Shown: positions 11,855 to 63,953 of the stretch, one piece after another | Position numbering within the stretch: position 1 is the stretch's first letter | Layout of the letters: the number at the start of each line of letters is the position of its first letter | Origin: Alphaproteobacteria bacterium | GTDB lineage: Bacteria; Pseudomonadota; Alphaproteobacteria; SP197 | Direction of reading: 5' to 3' | Assembly: GCA_965228895.1 (NCBI GenBank) | Contig: OZ245842.1 | Location: 2,839,964 to 2,903,963 of the forward strand | DNA: 64,000 bases | Made by a program: the position numbers and the translations under genes | The notes under the pieces: generated by a model | Seen by the model: only the letters and a program-made list of their open reading frames with translations | Databases searched by the model: none | Told to the model about the DNA's origin: nothing

Positions 11855-13012
11855 ATGGGTCACGTCAACGACATGCTCGAAAAGCGCCGCGAGTTTCTCG
11901 CGGGCAAGATAAACCGGCGCCAATTCAACCAGGCGCTGGCGGCGGTCGGACTGACGACCACCGCATTCCCGATGCACGCGGCGATGGCGCAAAGCGGCGA
12001 ACACCCGACGGTCTTCACATGGTCGGGATACGAGGAAGAAGCCTTCATCGCGAGCTATGTGAACCTGCACGGCACCGCGCCCGACTTCTCGTTCTTCGCC
12101 GACGAGGAAGAAGCCTATGCCAAGTTGCGGTCGGGCTTCCCGGCGGATGTCTTGATGCCGTGCACCTATAAGGTTCCGCCGTGGTACCGGGCCGGCCTCT
12201 TGGCGCCGATCGATACGTCGAGACTCACCCACTGGAACGATATCGTACCGAGCCTGAAGGAAATTCCGGGTACGGTGTTCGACGGTGAGCACTATTTCGT
12301 GCCGCAGGATTTCGGTTTTACCGCCATCACGTTCCGTCACGACCTGGCACCTGAGTATCTGGAGCCTGAGAACGCAAGCTGGGGTTTCCTTTGGGACACC
12401 AACTATGCCGGTCGCTTGGCAATGATCGACAGTCTGATCGACGGTGTCGCCGTCGCGTCAATCTATGGCGGCTACAACCCGTTCGACATGAACGAGCTTG
12501 AGATCGAAGGGACGAAGAAACTCCTGCAGGAACAGCTGCCTCTGCTGCGCTACTACGCAGGCGGTATGTCAGACGTCGAGCAGTCCTTGGCCGCGGGTGA
12601 ACTGGTCGCCTCGGCAACGTGGAACGGCTCGCGCATCCGTCTGACCGAACAGGGCGTTCCCGTCACCTTCATGAAACCGGACCAACCGGCCCTGAACGGT
12701 GAGCCCCAGGGTCCGATGACCTGGGTCTGCGGCATCTGCCTGTCGGCGACCATGGATCCGTCACTCGAACAACAGGCTTATGACGTGATGGACGCCTATA
12801 TGTCGCCGGAAGCCGGTGTCTATGAAGTCACCGAGTGGGCCGCCGGCCACGCCAACAACAGGGTCTATGAAATGATCGATGAGCAGCAGCTGCTCGATTA
12901 TGGCTTGGCGAAAAACCCCGACGAGGTCCTGGCGAAGGGCATCTTCCAGGAAGAAATGAAACAGGAAGCCCGGCTGCAGGAAATGTTCGAAGAAGTCAAA
13001 GCCGGCATGTAA
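11855..13012 (+). CDS. PotD/PotF-like periplasmic solute-binding protein with a Tat-type signal (paralog 1)
   Basis: AAGGAG lies upstream of the ATG. The N-terminus has KRREFLAGKINRRQF...AAMAQ (twin-arginine signal). The body is homologous to the ORFs at 13198 and 37005 (FTWSGYEEE..., LLAPIDTSRL...). Confidence 0.75.
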   Translation: MGHVNDMLEKRREFLAGKINRRQFNQALAAVGLTTTAFPMHAAMAQSGEHPTVFTWSGYEEEAFIASYVNLHGTAPDFSFFADEEEAYAKLRSGFPADVLMPCTYKVPPWYRAGLLAPIDTSRLTHWNDIVPSLKEIPGTVFDGEHYFVPQDFGFTAITFRHDLAPEYLEPENASWGFLWDTNYAGRLAMIDSLIDGVAVASIYGGYNPFDMNELEIEGTKKLLQEQLPLLRYYAGGMSDVEQSLAAGELVASATWNGSRIRLTEQGVPVTFMKPDQPALNGEPQGPMTWVCGICLSATMDPSLEQQAYDVMDAYMSPEAGVYEVTEWAAGHANNRVYEMIDEQQLLDYGLAKNPDEVLAKGIFQEEMKQEARLQEMFEEVKAGM

Positions 13013-13036
13013 CCGACTTTCTTATCGACGATTTGC

Positions 13037-13071
13037 GGCGCCGGGGCCTTGTGCCCCGGCGCCATTTTTTT
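13037..13071 (+). terminator. Rho-independent terminator after SBP paralog 1
   Basis: The stem ggcgccggggc / gccccggcgcc has a 5-nt loop and is followed by a T7 run. Confidence 0.8.
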
Positions 13072-13197
13072 GCCACCGTGAGAAGTCTTCTTTATGGCTA
13101 CTTGTTGACCTTGATCCTGCCAGGCGCAATGATCCGGGCTGAGGGGATCGGTTTGCACTAACACATAAGCGTACAAAACGCTTAGGGAGACGATTGA

Positions 13198-14367
13198 ATG
13201 AAAAATCTTGATGTTAACCGCATCTGTGACGGTATCCGCGAAGGCAAGATGTCGCGTCGCGAAATCCACACAGTGCTTGGTGCCGTTGGTTTCGGCCTGG
13301 CTGTCGTGCCGCTGACCAAAGGTGCACAAGCCCAAGAGATTGCCGCCGCAAGTTGTGGTGATGGTCATCCGATGACATTTACTTGGTCGGGCTACGACGA
13401 AGTTAACTTCCACAAACAGTACATCGCCGAGTACGGCTGCGCTTCGAACTTCACCTTCTGGGGTGACGAAGAAGAGGCCTTCGCCAAGATGCGGGCGGGC
13501 TTTGAGCCCGACGTCATGGCGCCGTGCACCTACGAGCTGAACCGCTGGTTCAATGCCGGCCTTTTGGCACCGATCGACACGTCGATGCTGTCGAACTGGG
13601 ATCAGATCATCCCGGCACTGAAGGAAGTGGATGGTTCGATTCAGGGCGGCAACCGCGTGTTCGTGCCAATGGATTGGGGCCAAACCTCCGTCACGTTCCG
13701 CACCGATCTGGCGCCGGAGTATGTCGACGTCGAGAACCACACCTGGGGCATCCTGTGGGATCCCAAGTATGCCGGTCGCCTGTCGATGATCGACAGCTTG
13801 ATCGACGGTGTCGCCGTTGCATCGATCTATGCCGGCCTTGAGGACCCTTACGACCTTTCCGACCCCGCCGATATGGAAACGACGGCCAATTTGCTGCGCG
13901 AACAGCTTCCGTTGCTGCGTTACTATTCCAACACCATGTCGGACGTCGAGCAGTCGCTGGCCTCCGGTGAGCTGGTTGCCGCGGCAACGTGGAACAGCTC
14001 GATCGTCGCGCTGCGCGGCCAGGGCCTACCGGTCATGTTCATGCAGCCAAAGGAAGGCGCGATGACATGGGTGTGCGGTCTGGTCCGTCATCCCTCCAAC
14101 GACGGCAGGGGCGAAGAGCAGATCGAGAAGGCGCATCAGATCCTCGACTCCTATCTCAGTGCCGAAGCCGGTGCGTGGGAGATCATCAACTACGGTTACG
14201 GTCACGCCAACCTCGGCGCCTACGAAATGGTGAGCGAAGAAGAGCTCGCCGAGCGTGGTCTGTCGAAGAACCCGGACGACCTGCTGGAAACCGGTATCTT
14301 CCAGGTGGAGATGACACCGCAGCAAGATATCCAAACCATGTTCGAGGAAGTCAAAGCCGGCATGTAA
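13198..14367 (+). CDS. PotD/PotF-like periplasmic solute-binding protein with a Tat-type signal (paralog 2)
   Basis: AGGGAGA lies upstream of the ATG. The signal is SRREIHTVLGAVGFGLAVVPLTKGAQA. The body is clearly paralogous to the ORF at 11855. Confidence 0.75.
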   Translation: MKNLDVNRICDGIREGKMSRREIHTVLGAVGFGLAVVPLTKGAQAQEIAAASCGDGHPMTFTWSGYDEVNFHKQYIAEYGCASNFTFWGDEEEAFAKMRAGFEPDVMAPCTYELNRWFNAGLLAPIDTSMLSNWDQIIPALKEVDGSIQGGNRVFVPMDWGQTSVTFRTDLAPEYVDVENHTWGILWDPKYAGRLSMIDSLIDGVAVASIYAGLEDPYDLSDPADMETTANLLREQLPLLRYYSNTMSDVEQSLASGELVAAATWNSSIVALRGQGLPVMFMQPKEGAMTWVCGLVRHPSNDGRGEEQIEKAHQILDSYLSAEAGAWEIINYGYGHANLGAYEMVSEEELAERGLSKNPDDLLETGIFQVEMTPQQDIQTMFEEVKAGM

Positions 14368-25288: not shown

Positions 25289-25428
25289 CTAGAGCAGATC
25301 CCGTTTTGATGGAATCGCTTCGCGATGCCGTCAAGACGGGTGAATCCGCTCTATTCATCGATAGAGAGCGGATTCACGCCGTTAGGGGGAACCGTCAAAC
25401 GGTTCCCCCTAACGACGATCCGCTCTAG
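25289..25428. repeat. 140-bp TA-flanked mosaic palindromic element (MITE/RIME-like), copy 1
   Basis: The terminal inverted repeats are ctagagcagatc / gatccgctctag. Three internal hairpins lie between them. A near-identical copy is at 38598-38737 in the same orientation. Confidence 0.8.
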
Positions 25429-37004: not shown

Positions 37005-38141
37005 ATGGCAACAGTGAGACACTTCTCCCGCATCATCGACCGCATGGCAGGCGGTCGCGCCGTCGACCGCCGCGACCTCATGCAGGCGATGACCGCACTC
37101 GGGCTTGGCGTTGCCGCCATGCCGCTGGTTCCAAGACGCGCCGATGCCCAGAACGTCGTGGCTTACTTCACCTGGTCCGGTTACGAGGTACGCGAGCTTC
37201 ACCCAGGCTTCATCGAGACCTATGGCGAGGGCAGTGTCGCCGCGACGTTTTTCGGCAGCGAGGAAGAAGCACTCTCCAAACTGCGGCGCGACTACCGGGC
37301 CGACATCGCTCACCCGTGCAGTTACTCCATGCCGCATTGGATCGACGCCGGTGTTGCCGGCCCGGTCGACGTGACCCGTCTCAGCAATTGGCCGGACTTG
37401 TTCGCGCACCTGCGCGAGTTACCCGATACCATGCGCGACGGCGAACATTACCTGGTGCCGTTCGACTGGGGCACCTCGTCGGTGCTCTACCGGTCCGACC
37501 TGGTCGACCCGAAATATGTCGACGATCCGACCTGGGGCATTCTGTTCGACGAGACCTATGCCGGGCGCCTGGCGATGTACGACACGTCGGTCATGGTTGA
37601 TGTCGCGATGCTGGTGAACGGCCACCATGACATCGCCTCGTTCACCGATGCGCAACTGGAAGAGGCCCGGCCCTTACTCGAAAAAGGCGACAGCCTGTTT
37701 CGCTTCTATTGGACCGACCCGACGGAGGTCACGCGCGATCTGGCCTCAGGCGACCTGGTCGCCGCCTATGCCTGGAACGGCATGACCAAACCGCTCGTCG
37801 AACAAGGCGTGCCGGTCACCTACATGAACCCGAAAGAAGGTCAGTTCACGTGGGTCTGCGGTTTGACCATCGACCCACGCAGCCAGGCCGACCCGGCGAT
37901 GGTCTATGCGTTCATCGACGCCATGATCTCGCCGGAAGCCGGGGTCTACGAAATCGAGGTCTATGATTACGGCCACGCCAACATGAAGGCGTTCGAGCTG
38001 GCCTCGCCTGACGCCTTGACGCGCCTCGGCTTCACCGATCCCAAGGCGGTCATCGACCAGGGCAACTTCATCCCTGCCCTGCCCGCCGATCTCGAAGCGA
38101 AGATCAACACGCTGGCCGACGAGATCAAAGCCGGCCTTTAA
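37005..38141 (+). CDS. PotD/PotF-like periplasmic solute-binding protein with a Tat-type signal (paralog 3)
   Basis: The signal is VDRRDLMQAMTALGLGVAAMPLVPRRADA. The body is homologous to the ORFs at 11855 and 13198 (FTWSGYE..., DTSVMVD...). Confidence 0.7.
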   Translation: MATVRHFSRIIDRMAGGRAVDRRDLMQAMTALGLGVAAMPLVPRRADAQNVVAYFTWSGYEVRELHPGFIETYGEGSVAATFFGSEEEALSKLRRDYRADIAHPCSYSMPHWIDAGVAGPVDVTRLSNWPDLFAHLRELPDTMRDGEHYLVPFDWGTSSVLYRSDLVDPKYVDDPTWGILFDETYAGRLAMYDTSVMVDVAMLVNGHHDIASFTDAQLEEARPLLEKGDSLFRFYWTDPTEVTRDLASGDLVAAYAWNGMTKPLVEQGVPVTYMNPKEGQFTWVCGLTIDPRSQADPAMVYAFIDAMISPEAGVYEIEVYDYGHANMKAFELASPDALTRLGFTDPKAVIDQGNFIPALPADLEAKINTLADEIKAGL

Positions 38142-38554: not shown

Positions 38555-38597
38555 GTCGATCATCATTGGACATTCGCCCCGAGCCCGGCTATCCGGG

Positions 38598-38737
38598 TTA
38601 GAGCAGATCCTGTTTTGATGAAATCGCTTCGCGATGCCAGCAAAGCAGGTGAATCTGCTCTACTCATAGATAGAGAGCGGATTCACATGGTTAGGTGGAA
38701 CCGCCAAACGGTTCCACCTAACCATGATCCGCTCTAG
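38598..38737. repeat. 140-bp TA-flanked mosaic palindromic element, copy 2
   Basis: It is collinear with copy 1 (25289-25428) in the same orientation. The differences within stems are compensatory or create T:G pairs. Confidence 0.8.
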
Positions 38738-38764
38738 GCCGCATTCTTGCAGGAGCACAAACCC

Positions 38765-40078
38765 ATGGCTGCGTTAGCGATCGACCTGTTGCCCAAGGTT
38801 GCCTGGGGCAAGGGCATGTACATCTACGACACCGACGGCAAGCGTTACCTCGACGGATCCGGCGGGCCGGCGACTTTCTGTCTGGGCCATGGCAACGAAG
38901 AGGTCAACGCAGCGATCAAGGAACAGCTTGACCGCATCGCGTTTGGCTACCGCCATCACTTCCGCAGCGATGCCGCCGAGGAACTGCAAGACATCATTAC
39001 CGAACGCGGCGGCGGCAACCTGAAGCACTGCATCTTCACCACCGGCGGCTCGGAATCGACGGAGTCGTGTCTGAAACTGGCGCTGCAGTATCACGCGGCG
39101 CGCGGCGACATGTCACGCCGCCGCTTCATTTCGCGGCAGCGAAGCTGGCACGGCAACACGCTGGGCGCGCTCTCGGTCTCCGGCTTCCTTGCGCGTCAGG
39201 AACCTTACTTCGGCTCGTTGCTGGAAGTGAGCCACCTGTCGCCGGTCAACACCTATCGCCCGCCCGAGGGTGTCGCGCCGGAAGACGTAGCCGAATACTG
39301 TGCCAATGAGTTGGAAGATGAGATCCTGCGGCTCGGCGCCGACAAGGTTGCGGCCTTCATCTTCGAGCCGGTGGTCGGTGCCGCCGGCGGTGCTGTGCCG
39401 GCGCCTGACGGTTATGCCAAGCGTATCCGCGAGATCTGCGATCGCCATGGCGTCTTAATGATCTCCGATGAAGTGATGTGCGGCGTCGGACGCTGCGGCA
39501 CGTGGCGCGCCTTGGAGCATGACGGGGTCGAGCCGGACATCATGGCGATTGCCAAGGGCCTGGGCGGCGGTTATCTGCCCCTGGGTGCAGCGGTCTATAC
39601 CGACAAGGTCGCCGAGCCGATCAACCGGGTGCACGGCATGCCGATCACCGGCCATACCTTCACCGCCCACACGACGGCGTGCGCGGCCGGCGTCGCGGTG
39701 CAGAAGATCATGATTCGCGACGGTCTGGTCGACCGTGTCGCCGAAGAAGGTCAATACCTGCGAGACCAACTGGAGTCGGCGCTCGGGCAGAACCCCCATG
39801 TCGGCAACATTCGCGGCCGTGGATTTTTCCAGGGCGTTGAATTGGTCGAAGACCGCGAAACCAAAGAGCCGTTCGCGCCGGAGCATAAGATGTTCTTCCG
39901 CGTCATGCAGGAATCGGTCGAAGGCGGTTTGATCTGTTATCCGACCGGTGGCAACGTGGACGGTGTCAAAGGCGACCAGATCATCATCGCGCCGGCTTAT
40001 AACGCCACCCGTGACGAACTGGACGAGATCGTGAGCCTGCTGGTTCCGGCCATCGACCGGGCCGTCGCCTCGATTTAG
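38765..40078 (+). CDS. Class-III (omega) aminotransferase
   Basis: GSGGPATFCLGHGNEEV, ISDEVMCGVGRCGT and IAKGLGGGYLPLG (PLP lysine) are present. I chose the ATG at 38765 with AGGAG 9 nt upstream. The track ORF starts at TTG 38747. Confidence 0.85.
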   Translation: MAALAIDLLPKVAWGKGMYIYDTDGKRYLDGSGGPATFCLGHGNEEVNAAIKEQLDRIAFGYRHHFRSDAAEELQDIITERGGGNLKHCIFTTGGSESTESCLKLALQYHAARGDMSRRRFISRQRSWHGNTLGALSVSGFLARQEPYFGSLLEVSHLSPVNTYRPPEGVAPEDVAEYCANELEDEILRLGADKVAAFIFEPVVGAAGGAVPAPDGYAKRIREICDRHGVLMISDEVMCGVGRCGTWRALEHDGVEPDIMAIAKGLGGGYLPLGAAVYTDKVAEPINRVHGMPITGHTFTAHTTACAAGVAVQKIMIRDGLVDRVAEEGQYLRDQLESALGQNPHVGNIRGRGFFQGVELVEDRETKEPFAPEHKMFFRVMQESVEGGLICYPTGGNVDGVKGDQIIIAPAYNATRDELDEIVSLLVPAIDRAVASI

Positions 40079-48729: not shown

Positions 48730-51282
48730 TCAGTTTCGATACTCCTCGGGGATGAAGAGCAGCGAATCCACCTCGGCGCCAATATGACAGTCGATGCAGA
48801 ACGCCACCTTTTCTGTACCCTCCCCGTTTGTGGTGCCGACAGTCTTGCCGTTGGGCATGATCAGGGTGTAGCGCCAGTCATCGGAGTCGGCGTTAAATCC
48901 CGAAGCCATCTTCTCCATGACAAACAACGGTCCGGGCACCACCGTGCCCTTTGCCGTCACCGCGAAGCTGTCCTTGGCCAGCACGGCACCAGCAGGCATG
49001 GTGCCGCCGTTTTCGTACTCGCCATATGACTGCGCCGCTGCGGCGTCAGCGTAATTGTTCACGAAGCGTCCGCCGTGGGTGTACGACTTGTAGGGCACGG
49101 AGTTGTACTTTTCCCATCCGCTGTAGGCGGACGAGATGTCAAGACCGGTGCTGGACATCAAATTGGCCTTGGCATAGCCGACTTCCATCTGCGCCTTGAT
49201 GCAGTCGTAAGCCGCCACAGCCTCGTCATTGGTCAGTTCGATGTCGACGCCGGCACCGCAGCCGCCGCACGCACCACAGCCGCCACACGCACCGCAACCG
49301 CCGCACGCACCACAGGCTCCACAAGCACCACAAGCACCACAGCCGCCACACGCACCGCAGCCACCGCAAGCGCCACAGGCTCCGCAAGCGCCGCAGGCCG
49401 AGCAGGCATCGCAGGCACTGCAGCCCGCCGCCATGCCGGCCGCAGGAACCGCCTCCGGATTCTCCTGCAAGCTCGCGCCGCAACCGCCGCACGCGCCACA
49501 GGCACCGCACGCGCCGCAGCCGCCACAGGCTCCGCAATCGGCCCAAGCGATGCTCGGCACCACGCAACCGGTGTCGGCTTCTGCCGCACAACCGCCGCAT
49601 GCACCACAACCACCGCACGCGCCACACGCTCCGCAAGCACCACACGCGCCGCAGCCACCACAGGCTCCGCATGCACCGCATGCACCGCATGCACCGCATG
49701 CACCGCATGCGTCACAAGCAGAACATGCGCCGCAAGCAGAACATGCGCCGCAGCCTGCCGCCATGCCGCTTGGCAACGCTTCCGGGTTCTCATGGCTGGC
49801 GCCATCTTCGTCGTCGGACCCGTCGGATTTCTCACCGCGCGGTTCCCACCAGTCCTCGCCGTCGCGTTTGGCACGCACTGCAAACTTCATGGCGCCATTC
49901 GAGTCTTCCAGGCTGGCGCCGCAACATCCACCACACGCACCGCAGGCATCACAGGCCGCGCAACACGCCGAGCACGCATCACACGCGCCGCAAGCCGAGC
50001 ACGCATCGCAGGCACCGCAGCCCGCCGCCATGCCAGTCGGCAGGGCGTCCGGATTGTCGAGGCTGGCGCCGCAGCATCCACCACACGCACCGCAGGCATC
50101 ACAAGCCGCACAACATGCCGAACACGCATCACACGCGCCGCAAGCCGAGCACGCATCGCACGCACCGCAGCCCGCCGCCATGCCGGTCGGCAGGGCGTCC
50201 GGATTGTCGAGGCTGGCGCCGCAGCATCCACCGCACGCACCGCAGGCATCACAGGCCGCACAACATGCCGAACACGCATCGCACGCGCCGCAAGCCGAGC
50301 ACGCATCGCACGCACCGCAGCCCGCCGCCATGCCGGTCGGCAGGGCGTCCGGATTGTCGAGGCTTGCGCCGCAACATCCACCGCACGCTCCGCAGGCATC
50401 ACAAGCCGCGCAACACGCCGAGCACGCATCACACGCGCCGCAAGCCGAGCACGCATCGCAGGCACCGCAGCCCGCCGCCATGCCAGTCGGCAGGGCGTCC
50501 GGATTGTCGAGGCTGGCGCCGCAACATCCACCGCAAGCTCCGCAGGCATCACAGGCCGCGCAACACGCCGAGCACGCATCACACGCGCCGCAAGCCGAGC
50601 ACGCATCGCACGCACCGCAGCCAGCCGCCATGCCGGTCGGCAGGGCGTCCGGATTGTCGAGGCTGGCGCCGCAACATCCACCGCAAGCTCCGCAGGCATC
50701 ACAAGCCGCGCAACATGCCGAACACGCATCACACGCGCCGCAAGCCGAGCACGCATCGCACGCACCGCAGCCCGCCGCCATGCCAGTCGGCAGGGCGTCC
50801 GGATTGTCGAGGCTTGCGCCGCAACATCCACCACACGCACCGCAGGCATCACAAGCCGCGCAACATGCCGAACACGCATCACACGCGCCGCAAGCCGAGC
50901 ACGCATCGCACGCACCGCAGCCCGCCGCCATGCCAGTCGGCAGGGCGTCCGGATTGTCGAGGCTTGCGCCGCAACATCCACCACACGCACCGCAGGCATC
51001 ACAGGCCGCGCAACACGCCGAACACGCATCGCACGCGCCGCAAGCCGAGCACGCATCGCACGCACCGCAGCCCGCCGCCATGCCGGTCAAAGCACGATCG
51101 GCGATGGACAAGGAGGCGGGCATGGGAACGGCGGCCGGATTTTCGACCGCGCGTGGATTGACAAGGCGACAGCTGGCGCGACCACAAGGCGCTGCCGCAA
51201 CGCTGACGGCAAGCGCAACGCCGGCGCCCATAAAGGCCGGCAGCATCGTGCTCGACAGCAGATTACGTTTGAGTTCACTCAT
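48730..51282 (-). CDS. Sec-signal hyper-cysteine (Cys-x-x)n tandem-repeat protein with a C-terminal cytochrome P460-family haem-c domain
   Basis: GGGAGG lies upstream of the ATG at 51282. The N-terminal signal is LPAFMGAGVALAVSVAAA. Eight 50-aa units (MAAGCGACDACSACGACDACSACCAACDACGACGGCCGASLDNPDALPTG) are followed by two degenerate Cys modules. The C-terminal ~190 aa has DDWRYTLI and FCIDCHIGAEVDSLLFIPEEY, resembling P460 (NWAFYIF...CAACHKENAKTDMVFTQFYP, from memory). Confidence 0.75.
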   Translation of the reverse strand: MSELKRNLLSSTMLPAFMGAGVALAVSVAAAPCGRASCRLVNPRAVENPAAVPMPASLSIADRALTGMAAGCGACDACSACGACDACSACCAACDACGACGGCCGASLDNPDALPTGMAAGCGACDACSACGACDACSACCAACDACGACGGCCGASLDNPDALPTGMAAGCGACDACSACGACDACSACCAACDACGACGGCCGASLDNPDALPTGMAAGCGACDACSACGACDACSACCAACDACGACGGCCGASLDNPDALPTGMAAGCGACDACSACGACDACSACCAACDACGACGGCCGASLDNPDALPTGMAAGCGACDACSACGACDACSACCAACDACGACGGCCGASLDNPDALPTGMAAGCGACDACSACGACDACSACCAACDACGACGGCCGASLDNPDALPTGMAAGCGACDACSACGACDACSACCAACDACGACGGCCGASLEDSNGAMKFAVRAKRDGEDWWEPRGEKSDGSDDEDGASHENPEALPSGMAAGCGACSACGACSACDACGACGACGACGACGACGGCGACGACGACGACGGCGACGGCAAEADTGCVVPSIAWADCGACGGCGACGACGACGGCGASLQENPEAVPAAGMAAGCSACDACSACGACGACGACGGCGACGGCGACGACGACGACGGCGACGGCGACGGCGAGVDIELTNDEAVAAYDCIKAQMEVGYAKANLMSSTGLDISSAYSGWEKYNSVPYKSYTHGGRFVNNYADAAAAQSYGEYENGGTMPAGAVLAKDSFAVTAKGTVVPGPLFVMEKMASGFNADSDDWRYTLIMPNGKTVGTTNGEGTEKVAFCIDCHIGAEVDSLLFIPEEYRN
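49911..51081. repeat. Tandem direct repeat, 150-bp unit x ~7.8, inside the Cys-rich gene
   Basis: The anchor gcccgccgccatgcc recurs at about 50020, 50170, 50320, 50470, 50620, 50770, 50920 and 51070. In the one adjacent pair I compared, the units are about 95% identical at the DNA level. Confidence 0.95.
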
Positions 51283-60770: not shown

Positions 60771-62297
60771 ATGACAAGGGAGCGGGCGCGCCGGCGCGAG
60801 AGGCGCAGCAAGGGGCAACGCTTTCATCAACTGCCGTGGCGGCGGGTGACCAACCCGTTCCCGCCGCTTGAGGCCGTTTCCGCCGACGAACTGCAGATGA
60901 TCCAGGATCGTTCGCTGGAGGTCCTGGAAGATATCGGCATCGAGTTCCTGGACGACCGCGCGCTCGACATTCTTCAAAAGGCCGGCGCCGATGTCGATCG
61001 CGGCAACCGGCGCGTTCGCTTTGACCGCAATCTCGTCGCCGAGGCCGTCGCCAAGGCGCCGGCCCGTTTCACACTTCATGCCCGTAACCCCGAACGCAAT
61101 CTGGAGATTGGCGGCAACGCGATCGCATTTTCGCCAGTCGCCAGTCCGCCGTTTGCTTCCGACCTGGACAACGGCCGGCGCGAGGGCAACTTCGCCGATT
61201 ACCAGAATTTCTTGAGGCTCGCGCAAAGCCTCAACATCCTGCATCTGGTGTGCGGTTATCCGGTCGAACCGACGGACCTACCGGCACCGACCCGACATCT
61301 CGATTGTTACGCGGCCTTCGCACGGCTGACCGATCGCGCTTGGCACGCCTATTCGCTGGGCCGCGACCGTGTCGAAGACGCGCTCGACATTATCTGTATG
61401 GTGCGCGGCATCGATCGCGAGCAATTGATGCACGAGCCAAGCGTCGTTACGGTCGTCAATGCCAACTCGCCGCTTCGCTATGACGGCCCGATGCTGGATG
61501 GGCTTCTGCGTATGGCCGATCATCACCAGCCGGTCATCGTGACGCCGTTCACGTTGTGCGGTGCCATGGCGCCGGCGACGGTGGTCGGCGCGTTGACGCA
61601 GCAGAACGCGGAAGCGCTGGCCGGCATGACGTTGATCCAACTCGCCAATCCCGGCGCGCCGGTGATGTATGGCGGCTTTACCAGCAATGTCGACATGAAG
61701 TCCGGCGCGCCGGCCTTCGGCACGCCGGAATACACCCGCGCCGCCTTGATCGGCGGTCAGCTTGCCCGGTTGAACGGCGTGCCCTATCGCTCCAGCAACA
61801 CCAACGCGTCGAACGCGCCCGATGCCCAAGCGGCGTACGAATCCCAGATGTCGATCTGGGGCGCCGTAATGGGCCACGTGAACCTGATGATGCACGGCGC
61901 CGGTTGGCTGGAGGGCGGCCTGGTGGCGAGTTTTGAAAAGATGATCATCGACGTCGAGATGCTGCAGATGATTGCCGAAGTCCTGGAGCCGATCACGGTC
62001 ACGGACGCGGAGATCGGCATCGAAGCCATGGCCGATGTCGGCCCTGGCGGTCACTTCTTCGGGACCCAGCACACACTGGATCGCTACGAGCACGCCTTCT
62101 ACGAACCCGTCGTCTCGGACTGGCGCAACTTCGAAAGCTGGGTCGAGGCCGGCAGTCCCGATGCCGCCCAGCGCGCCAACGTCATCTGGAAACAATTGCT
62201 GGATGACTACACGCCACCACCAATGGACCCGGCGATCGAAGAAGAACTTGAGGCGTTCGTGAGCCGGCGCAAGGCTGAGACCAAAGACGCCGCCTGA
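60771..62297 (+). CDS. MttB-superfamily (non-pyrrolysine) methyltransferase, paralog 1
   Basis: The product is 508 aa. The N-terminus carries ...HQLPWRRVTNPFPPLEAVSADELQMIQDRSLEVLEDIGIEF. The C-terminal motifs GPGGHFFGTQHTL and SDWRNFESW are typical of the trimethylamine methyltransferase family. There is no in-frame TAG. Confidence 0.85.
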   Translation: MTRERARRRERRSKGQRFHQLPWRRVTNPFPPLEAVSADELQMIQDRSLEVLEDIGIEFLDDRALDILQKAGADVDRGNRRVRFDRNLVAEAVAKAPARFTLHARNPERNLEIGGNAIAFSPVASPPFASDLDNGRREGNFADYQNFLRLAQSLNILHLVCGYPVEPTDLPAPTRHLDCYAAFARLTDRAWHAYSLGRDRVEDALDIICMVRGIDREQLMHEPSVVTVVNANSPLRYDGPMLDGLLRMADHHQPVIVTPFTLCGAMAPATVVGALTQQNAEALAGMTLIQLANPGAPVMYGGFTSNVDMKSGAPAFGTPEYTRAALIGGQLARLNGVPYRSSNTNASNAPDAQAAYESQMSIWGAVMGHVNLMMHGAGWLEGGLVASFEKMIIDVEMLQMIAEVLEPITVTDAEIGIEAMADVGPGGHFFGTQHTLDRYEHAFYEPVVSDWRNFESWVEAGSPDAAQRANVIWKQLLDDYTPPPMDPAIEEELEAFVSRRKAETKDAA

Positions 62298-62423
62298 TCG
62301 TCACCGCAGTCTCGGCTTTGGCGTTTTCGTGACCAAAGGTGACGCCCTGGTGCTTTCCAGCGGCATGAGGCGCTCCCTAGCCTTTCGCCGACCCTCATAG
62401 AGAACAGTTCAGGCGGATTCCTC

Positions 62424-63953
62424 ATGGCCCGACGCACATCTAGACGCCAAGCCGGCGGCCGGGCCAAAGGCGCCCTTCATCAGTTGCCCTGGCGGCAGGT
62501 CAGAAACCGGTTCCCGCCGGTCGATATCCTGAGCGCCGATCAGATCGAGCACATCCACAACAGCTCGCTTCAGGTGCTCGAAGAATTGGGCATGGAAGTC
62601 ATGGGCGAGAGTGCGCGGCGTCTTCTGAAAGACGCCGGCGCCGATGTCGACGACGCGACCATGCGCGTGCGCTTCGACCGCACCATGGTGATGGAACAGA
62701 TTGAGAAGGCGCCGGCGGAGTTCACCATCCACAGCCGCAACCCCGACCGCGACGTTGTCTTTGGCGGCAACCACGTGGTCGTCACGCCGGTCAGCAGCAC
62801 ACCGAACTGTTCGGATCTCGACCGCGGCCGCCGCCCCGGCAGCTACGACGACTTCTGCGATCTCCTGCGTCTCTCCCAAAGCCTCAATGTCGTCCACTAC
62901 TACGGCGGCTATCCGGTCGAACCGCAGGACCTGCCGGTGCCGACCCGTCACCTGGATTGTTACATCGCGTTCATCACCTTGACCGACCGCGCGTGGCGCA
63001 CCTATTCGCTGGGCGGCGACCGGTGCCGTGACGGCATCGCGATGAACAAGATCGCGCGCCAGATCGGCGACGATGAGATGCGCGCCAAACCCGGCCTGAT
63101 GACCATGATCAACACCAACTCGCCGCTGCGCCTGGACGGGCCGATGAGCGAGGGTTTGATGGAGATGGCGCGCGCCGGTCAGGGCGTTGCCATCACGCCC
63201 TTCACCCTGTGCGGGGCGATGGCGCCGGCGACGCTTGCCGGCGCCCTGGTGCAGCAGAATGCCGAGGCGTTGGCAGCGCTCGCCCTGGTGCAGTTGGCCA
63301 ACCCCGGCAATCCCGTGATGTATGGCGGCTTTACCAGCAATGTCGACATGAAGTCGGGCGCGCCGGCCTTCGGCACGCCGGAATACGTCAAAGCGACGCT
63401 GGCCGGCGGTCAGTTGGCGCGCCATTACGGCATTCCCTTCCGCACCAGCAACGTCAACGCCTCGAACGCGCCGGACGCGCAAGGCGCGTACGAGTCCGGC
63501 ATGTCGTTATGGGCCGCGTTCCTGGCGCACGGCAACATGATCCACCATGGCGCAGGCTGGCTGGAAGGCGGCCTGGTCTCCAGCTTCGAAAAGATGATCA
63601 TCGATGCGGAGATGCTGCAGATGATGTTCGAGACGCTGGAGCCGCTCGAGGTCACCGATGACGCCATCGGCCTCGACGCCATGCGCGAGGTCGGGCCGGG
63701 CGGCCACTTCTTCGGTGCTCAGCACACGCTCGAACGTTATGAGACCGCATTCTATGCGCCCATGCTGAGCGACTGGCGCAACTTCGAGACCTGGGCCGAA
63801 GCCGGCAGCCCGGACGCGGCGCAACGCGCCAACCGGATCTGGAAGCAGCTTCTGGAGAGTTACGAGGAACCGGCGCTTGATCCGGCAATTCGCGAAGAAC
63901 TCGACGCCTATGTCGCGCGGCGCAAGGAAGAAGGCGGCGCCGAAGACAGCTAG
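62424..63953 (+). CDS. MttB-superfamily (non-pyrrolysine) methyltransferase, paralog 2
   Basis: The product is 509 aa. It is collinear with and about two-thirds identical (by eye) to the upstream paralog, with the same motifs (GPGGHFFGAQHTL, SDWRNFETW). Confidence 0.85.
   Translation: MARRTSRRQAGGRAKGALHQLPWRQVRNRFPPVDILSADQIEHIHNSSLQVLEELGMEVMGESARRLLKDAGADVDDATMRVRFDRTMVMEQIEKAPAEFTIHSRNPDRDVVFGGNHVVVTPVSSTPNCSDLDRGRRPGSYDDFCDLLRLSQSLNVVHYYGGYPVEPQDLPVPTRHLDCYIAFITLTDRAWRTYSLGGDRCRDGIAMNKIARQIGDDEMRAKPGLMTMINTNSPLRLDGPMSEGLMEMARAGQGVAITPFTLCGAMAPATLAGALVQQNAEALAALALVQLANPGNPVMYGGFTSNVDMKSGAPAFGTPEYVKATLAGGQLARHYGIPFRTSNVNASNAPDAQGAYESGMSLWAAFLAHGNMIHHGAGWLEGGLVSSFEKMIIDAEMLQMMFETLEPLEVTDDAIGLDAMREVGPGGHFFGAQHTLERYETAFYAPMLSDWRNFETWAEAGSPDAAQRANRIWKQLLESYEEPALDPAIREELDAYVARRKEEGGAEDS

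Follow-up and report, generated by a model that had tools for sequence, protein, structure and literature searches.

A repeated palindromic element upstream of an aminotransferase gene, best explained as a member of a new family of TA-flanked mobile repeats

The element, its copies and the aminotransferase leader

The 64-kb window, by which we mean the whole stretch of DNA analyzed, contains two copies of a short (138 bp) non-coding element, both on the + strand (BLAST and covariance model). Copy 1 lies at the stop codon of a gene for a 73-aa membrane protein, and copy 2 separates a promoter-like motif from the ribosome-binding site of a class-III aminotransferase gene (Table 1).

Table 1. Coordinates of the element copies and of the neighboring features in the window
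Feature	Position	Strand	Remarks
Element copy 1	25290-25427	+	unit 1 25290-25353, spacer 25354-25361, unit 2 25362-25427
TAG stop of the 73-aa membrane-protein gene	25425-25427	-	right-hand TA plus last core base (C25425, G on the minus strand)
Promoter-like motif TTGGAC-N17-CTATCC	38566-38594	+	adjacent to the insertion on its 5' side, with 4 nt between motif and element
Element copy 2	38599-38736	+	flanking TA 38599-38600 and 38735-38736; core 38601-38734; covariance-model score 164.7 bits
Copy 2, unit 1	38599-38662	+	64-nt palindromic hairpin
Copy 2, spacer between the units	38663-38670	+	8 nt, CTCATAGA
Copy 2, unit 2	38671-38736	+	66-nt palindromic hairpin
AGGAG ribosome-binding site and ATG of the class-III aminotransferase gene	38751-38767	+	AGGAG 38751-38755; ATG 38765-38767
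Unoccupied CTAG at a stop codon	63950-63953		syntenic MAG locus L009 filled

The full element has a 134-bp core, in which two diverged palindromic units of ~65 nt are arranged head-to-head, in inverted orientation, on either side of an 8-nt spacer. In copy 2, unit 1 has the foot TAGAGCAGAT/ATCTGCTCTA, T:G wobbles in the inner stem and the tip ATCGC-TTC-GCGAT. Unit 2 approximates the reverse complement of unit 1 (47/64 positions identical; alignment score 72 vs. 10.7 ± 6.2 in shuffles); the two are homologous in this sense, and the element is therefore an inverted dimer. The motif TA-GAGC(A/G)GAT is common to all four unit ends, in the order -> <- -> <-, with the outer ends of the element being of the 'GATC' type and the inner ends of the 'GATTCAC' type. 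The element has terminal inverted repeats (TAGAGCAGATCC ... GGATCCGCTCTA), and its foot stems hardly vary. Copies 1 and 2 can be aligned over their 138 positions with no indels and 18 differences (87% identity). GANTC, the CcrM-type methylation motif, is depleted in the window (102 sites vs. 217 expected); nearly every element copy contains 2-4 such sites, two of which (element positions 53 and 82) are near-fixed and flank the spacer.

When 185,579 species genomes were scanned for an exact 18-mer, 16 loci were matched in a single MAG (Alphaproteobacteria bacterium PL23b_bin.48), and the 15 other matches are about as many as expected by chance. This MAG holds at least 14 full and 3 truncated copies. 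A gapped pattern search matched only five JGI metagenome contigs. By BLAST and covariance model, the family comprises 20 full-length copies, several truncated ones and one solo unit 1 (L034 = L035, flanked by C-TA...TA-G), in a sample that is biased toward young, intact members because most copies were recovered via the exact 18-mer. No real match was obtained among 72,556 plasmids when the element and 6 kb around it were compared by BLAST up to E <= 10, and a full-text literature search with the end sequences retrieved unrelated primers only. The family is rare and restricted to this uncultured alphaproteobacterial lineage. On one metagenome contig (L033, 3176-4040), two diverged copies, ~77% identical to those of the window, bracket atpF in the ATP synthase operon, and one of them is antisense between two genes of the operon.

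Other repeats were noted in the window. A long in-frame array at 49203-51106 starts with GCACCACAA-like repeats of 9-nt period (Ala-Pro-Gln), continues with ~7.9 copies of a 150-nt unit that are 96% identical, and probably encodes a highly repetitive protein. Tandem paralogous gene pairs are located at 12069-14367, 37005-38141 and 61053-63494; one pair codes for solute-binding proteins related to the gene upstream of the GFA gene, and segments of the pair at 61-63.5 kb are 70-81% identical.

Every orthologous locus has the TTGGAC-N17-CTATCC motif ahead of its aminotransferase gene, whether or not it carries the element, and the sequence of the motif suggests a promoter. If it is one, the mRNA would start at about the first base of the element. 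The 5' leader of the aminotransferase mRNA would then probably open with copy 2, transcribed as two independently folding hairpins at the 5' end. The AGGAG site and the ATG are unpaired in the predicted leader fold, so that these hairpins would not mask the ribosome-binding site. The element is present at this locus in a near-identical strain (L039). In the orthologous MAG locus (L040; aminotransferase protein 95% identical), unit 1 is deleted between two ATC triplets and the gene is intact; the remnant has a flipped unit 2 loop and two uncompensated changes. A more decayed remnant is found at L037, where the promoter-like motif is also duplicated around an inserted gene pair (SBP, HTH_31), and the locus with 89% protein identity (L038) is without the element. 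The proposal that the element shapes the 5'-UTR of this gene is thus plausible from its position, but any such effect is dispensable, because the gene is retained in relatives where the element is halved or missing.

Paired changes and strand asymmetry

The original prediction had read compensatory stem changes from the two window copies, and both of its examples hold. The change from ggggg/ccccc to ggtgg/ccacc in its hairpin 3 corresponds to the pair 38696/38716 (G:C to T:A), and that from cccg/cggg to cctg/cagg in its hairpin 1 to the pair 38611/38647 (C:G to T:A). Two further double compensations were found, at 38687/38725 (G:C to A:T) and 38689/38723 (C:G to G:C). The 18 differences between the copies therefore comprise four double-compensated stem pairs, three single-sided T:G/T:A toggles, four other single-sided changes in pairs and three unpaired changes. 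With 18 differences, ~1 pair changed on both sides and well under 1 compensatory pair would be expected by chance, vs. the four observed.

Two readings of wobble pairs fared less well. A T opposite G was said to be kept in both copies; T:G pairs do occur in unit 1 of both, but at different positions (16-46 and 21-41 in copy 1, 15-47 in copy 2). The C-to-T change at 38656 creates a T:G pair only if the inner unit ends are paired with each other, as in the 'hairpin 2' initially drawn. In the tandem-hairpin fold, it converts an A:C mismatch of copy 1 to A:T.

Covariation was then measured over the 20 full copies (set A5), with an RNAalifold-type structure of two tandem hairpins and 54 stem pairs. 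Paired cells made up 96.0% of this alignment vs. 91.4 ± 0.4% in shuffled alignments, 20 of the 54 stem pairs were changed on both sides (8.6 ± 1.8 in shuffles), and the covariation score was 0.209 (0.114 in shuffles). None of 500 shuffles reached any of these measures, and in a control with the partners slid by 1-3 columns the number of double-changed pairs fell to 4-7. Covariation above background in further copies, on which the original prediction had been staked, is thus present, and the view that the element is not inert debris stands, because stem complementarity is maintained family-wide.

Double-changed pairs are found in both inner stems (7/17 pairs in unit 1, 11/19 in unit 2), and the feet barely vary. 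Covariation consequently leaves a cloverleaf with paired outer ends and the tandem hairpins undistinguished, because the foot stems are nearly invariant. Conserved 3-nt bulges interrupt the hairpins in the family alignment. Copy 2 folds far more strongly than its shuffles on either strand (z = -13.0 for the + strand, -9.7 for the - strand). The unit 1 loop is flipped from TTC to GAA in L027 (3164-3301) and in L033a (L033, 3902-4040), and the unit 2 loop from CCAAA to TTTGG in the orthologous MAG copy (L040, 7814-7881). These flipped hairpin tips suggest intra-palindrome template switching.

The proposal that wobble pairs are specific to the + strand is correct for one unit of the element. In the inner stem of unit 1, the 20 copies have 33 G:T cells over 7 sites and no A:C cell, whereas the counts are 12 vs. 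15 in unit 2 and 16 vs. 19 everywhere outside the unit 1 inner stem. The difference between this stem and the rest is significant (Fisher p = 1.5e-7), with the reservation that the cells are not independent events, because the copies radiate in a star-like tree from an L023-like consensus in which three T:G pairs are already present. The + strand of unit 1 is stabler than its complement in 18 of 20 copies (p about 4e-4), with a mean difference of -6.1 kcal/mol for RNA and -2.2 kcal/mol for DNA folding parameters. The two exceptions, L027 and L033a, are the copies with the flipped unit 1 loop. Unit 2 shows no strand difference in stability. Deviations in unit 1 are more frequent in the 3' arm (54) than in the 5' arm (26), and the + strand advantage is equal in sense and antisense copies. 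The strand-asymmetric wobble signal is real and limited to one unit.

Insertion sites and the source of the covariation

At the copy 1 site, read on the minus strand, the window has the filled arrangement GGC-TA[core]TA-GAAC. The orthologous sites read GAG-TA-GGCG (L041, which is the MAG, and L042), GAC-TA-AGAC (L043) and AGA-TA-GGGC (L044). In all four, a single TA at this place belongs to the stop codon of the conserved 73-aa gene, and there is neither an element nor a covariance-model match. The MAG locus L009, which is syntenic and 88% identical in DNA to the window, contains a partial element that starts exactly at the CTAG equivalent to that at window position 63950. Presence or absence at orthologous sites, together with target duplication, was found at the copy 1 site, and two further sites are polymorphic.

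The flanking TA is found at the left end in 16 of 21 copies and at the right end in 15 of 21. It is preceded by C at position -1 in 13/21 copies (p = 0.004) and followed by G at position +1 in 15/21 (p = 0.0002), so that the flanks approach a split CTAG; the empty site at 63950 is likewise a CTAG. This tetranucleotide is ~six-fold depleted in the window (34 observed vs. 217 expected), and three of these sites (25289, 25425 and 38734) coincide with element ends. Whichever strand is read, the first core base is G, and an element that enters a stop codon at its TA therefore rebuilds a TAG. This regeneration accounts for the many copies that abut gene ends: at no fewer than nine loci, a credible flanking gene stops at the terminal TAG of the element.

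A 4-bp CTAG duplication of the IS5 type was discarded, with flank pairs such as TTAG/CTAG and ATAG/CTAC giving 16 mismatches when read as direct repeats vs. 8 as inverted repeats. L023 was also considered as an ortholog of copy 2 on the basis of 13 matching flank bases, and rejected because its flanking genes are unrelated. Directly 5' of the full copy in L023 (4799-4806), the sequence ATCCGCTC resembles the right end of another element sharing the TA; it falls in the last codons of a 114-aa ORF and could be due to chance or be a remnant. Isolated end motifs preceded by TA were not found in ~330 kb of lineage sequence. Two unrelated copies (L029, 1717-1854; L001b, at L001 286-423) have CA...TG in place of TA...TA. 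This is a complementary double change that yields an inverted rather than a direct repeat, and it is odd for a pure target duplication.

We consider it quite probable that the feature is a copy of a MITE family (non-autonomous transposons) that inserts at TA/CTAG, is most likely mobilized in trans by an enzyme of the IS630/Tc1-mariner type, and owes its covariation to propagating copies. The element is short, non-coding and multi-copy, with terminal inverted repeats. It would insert at TA, preferably within CTAG, and duplicate the TA. IS630/Tc1-mariner elements are marked by a TA duplication combined with a preference for CTAG, and the mover is therefore most likely a DDE transposase of this type, an assignment that is drawn from the target signature. 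Hairpin complementarity would be preserved in the copy lineage that is still propagating, with intra-palindrome templated changes helping, as they could bring about a double 'compensatory' change in one step. In this process, copy 2 would have inserted downstream of the promoter-like motif and upstream of the ribosome-binding site. Because resident orthologous copies decay without compensation, the covariation probably does not reflect host selection at each locus, and we infer that the constraint on the hairpins acts on the propagating element rather than on a host RNA. Three points weigh against the MITE model. The CA...TG ends of L029 and L001b are not expected from it, cut-and-paste transposition of dsDNA does not obviously need complementary arms within each unit, and the asymmetry in unit 1 (33 G:T cells, no A:C cell) points to a possible single-stranded stage, which the model does not predict. 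Formally, moreover, an element that contains the TA and inserts at a site without one would leave the same pattern as a TA duplication.

The same MITE might have acquired its paired changes by mutation alone, through replication template switching in quasi-palindromes and with no selection on folding. We regard this as possible, although the odds are against it. Short loops favor intra-palindrome template switching in quasi-palindrome mutagenesis, the loops here are 3-5 nt long, and the flipped tips of L027, L033a and the MAG copy are the expected products. The old resident copies (L037 and L040), however, accumulate uncompensated mismatches, and the 3-nt bulges and T:G sites persist uncorrected. 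G:T without A:C in unit 1 is likewise unexpected for a strand-neutral process; this wobble-only pattern argues that constraint on folding has some part.

A REPIN-like or IS200/IS605-derived (PATE-like) repeat, moved as ssDNA by a HUH tyrosine transposase (RAYT/TnpA) that reads hairpins on one strand, is unlikely. The inverted dimer of palindromic units, the conserved feet with covarying upper stems and conserved 3-nt bulges, and a + strand wobble asymmetry in unit 1 that is independent of flanking transcription would all suit it, and compensatory change of the same kind is documented in REPINs, which are mobile palindromic repeats (PMC3116915). REPINs are inserted without duplication and occur as repeats that flank a RAYT gene, however, whereas the filled site is flanked by TA on both sides and a single TA is present in the empty ones. 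Two copies surround a short gene only on L033; a RAYT was considered there, but the gene is atpF, which codes for ATP synthase subunit b. Nor does the element resemble IS200/IS605 PATEs, which have a fixed tetra- or pentanucleotide, no duplication and strand-specific hairpins at both ends: the target preference C-TA...TA-G is symmetric, there is no further conserved 5' tetranucleotide and no GTAG, and unit 2 is without strand asymmetry. The ssDNA transposition intermediate that the original prediction offered as one of two options thus fits poorly, in its HUH form, with the TA duplication and the symmetric CTAG preference.

Speculatively, and against our own expectation, a Tc1/IS630-like MITE targeting TA/CTAG may need a folded single-stranded form of one strand to propagate, or the host may have recruited the + strand hairpins as 5'- or 3'-terminal mRNA stabilizers. 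The former idea derives from the wobble-only variation in unit 1 and from a complementarity that is kept in active copies and lost in resident ones. If it were true, the transposition mechanism would combine features that are ascribed to separate transposase classes.

The mobile-element part of the earlier alternative (structured RNA or transposition intermediate) stands, and a dedicated RNA is unlikely. With Rfam 15 at the gathering threshold, only a tRNA matched in the whole window, and around the element the best local hits up to E <= 10 had E >= 1.6 and scores far below threshold. A consensus scan found no promoter-like site inside either copy, and no intrinsic terminator (GC-rich hairpin plus T-tract) was detected at either. 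Relative to co-directional flanking genes, 4 copies are sense and 5 antisense, and further copies lie between convergent or divergent genes. Close relatives differ in whether they carry a given copy, and folding is strong on the minus strand as well. An RNA structure under host selection, be it a cis-regulatory leader or a small RNA that has to fold from the + strand, was the preference of the original prediction. It would be in keeping with the covariation and very low folding energies, the position of copy 2 and the tolerance of G:U but not A:C in unit 1, but is very improbable, because orientation is random, the wobble bias is equal in sense and antisense copies, internal promoters and terminators are missing, and resident copies decay, with unit 1 deleted beside an intact gene in the MAG.

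Comparison with known systems

These data are best explained by (i) paired stem changes of the kind typical of mobile palindromic repeats; and (ii) mobile elements of a known kind that form a new family, rather than a new RNA. The finding adds an undescribed MITE family to a little-known, uncultured alphaproteobacterial lineage, and provides a clean case of transposon ends that regenerate TAG stops, which renders insertions at gene ends harmless. It also cautions that a palindromic repeat may show covariation and wobble pairs without this being, by itself, evidence of a functional RNA; in annotation, the copies should be masked as mobile repeats and not called as RNA genes. The alleles of the aminotransferase leader, which carry the full element, half of it or none, amount to a natural experiment on hairpins at the 5' end of an mRNA.

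The intergenic regions of alphaproteobacteria contain RIMEs (Rhizobium-specific intergenic mosaic elements) and similar palindromic repeats. The present element resembles them, by description only, as an intergenic mosaic of large palindromes. Among the 72,556 plasmids searched, which include rhizobial ones, the element has no sequence match.

REPINs share with it the inverted doublets of palindromic units, long hairpins, conserved ends, a compensated variable interior and an intergenic location (PMC3116915). They differ in lacking a target duplication and in being tied to a REP-flanked RAYT gene, whereas the present element has its TA duplicated and, in the loci analyzed, showed no link to a RAYT.

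IS630 is reported to prefer TA within CTAG and to duplicate the TA (Tenzen and Ohtsubo, 1991; Feng and Colloms, 2007; PMC2170065). The TA duplication, the preference for TA in CTAG and the short terminal inverted repeats are common to IS630/Tc1-mariner elements, their MITEs and the present element. In contrast to IS630/Tc1-mariner elements, two copies of the present element have CA...TG ends, and neither a cognate transposase gene nor a full-length IS ending in these sequences was encountered in the lineage sequence analyzed.

The closest analogues are the Correia elements and other TA-duplicating MITEs. Like the present element, Correia elements (CREE/NEMIS) of Neisseria are ~70-155 bp long and non-coding, with terminal inverted repeats and TA flanks; both are intergenic, often co-transcribed and hairpin-forming, and are without a known transposase. 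The first 14 nt of the Correia repeat (tatagtggattaac; PMC5039591) match the inner-type end of the present element (TAGAGCGGATTCAC) at 11 of 14 positions, a comparison over so short a stretch that it serves as a lead only. Correia elements are hosted by betaproteobacteria and have one TIR pair around a core, whereas the element described here belongs to alphaproteobacteria and consists of two back-to-back palindromic units; set against Correia elements, it is further characterized by its CTAG preference and by the regeneration of stop codons.
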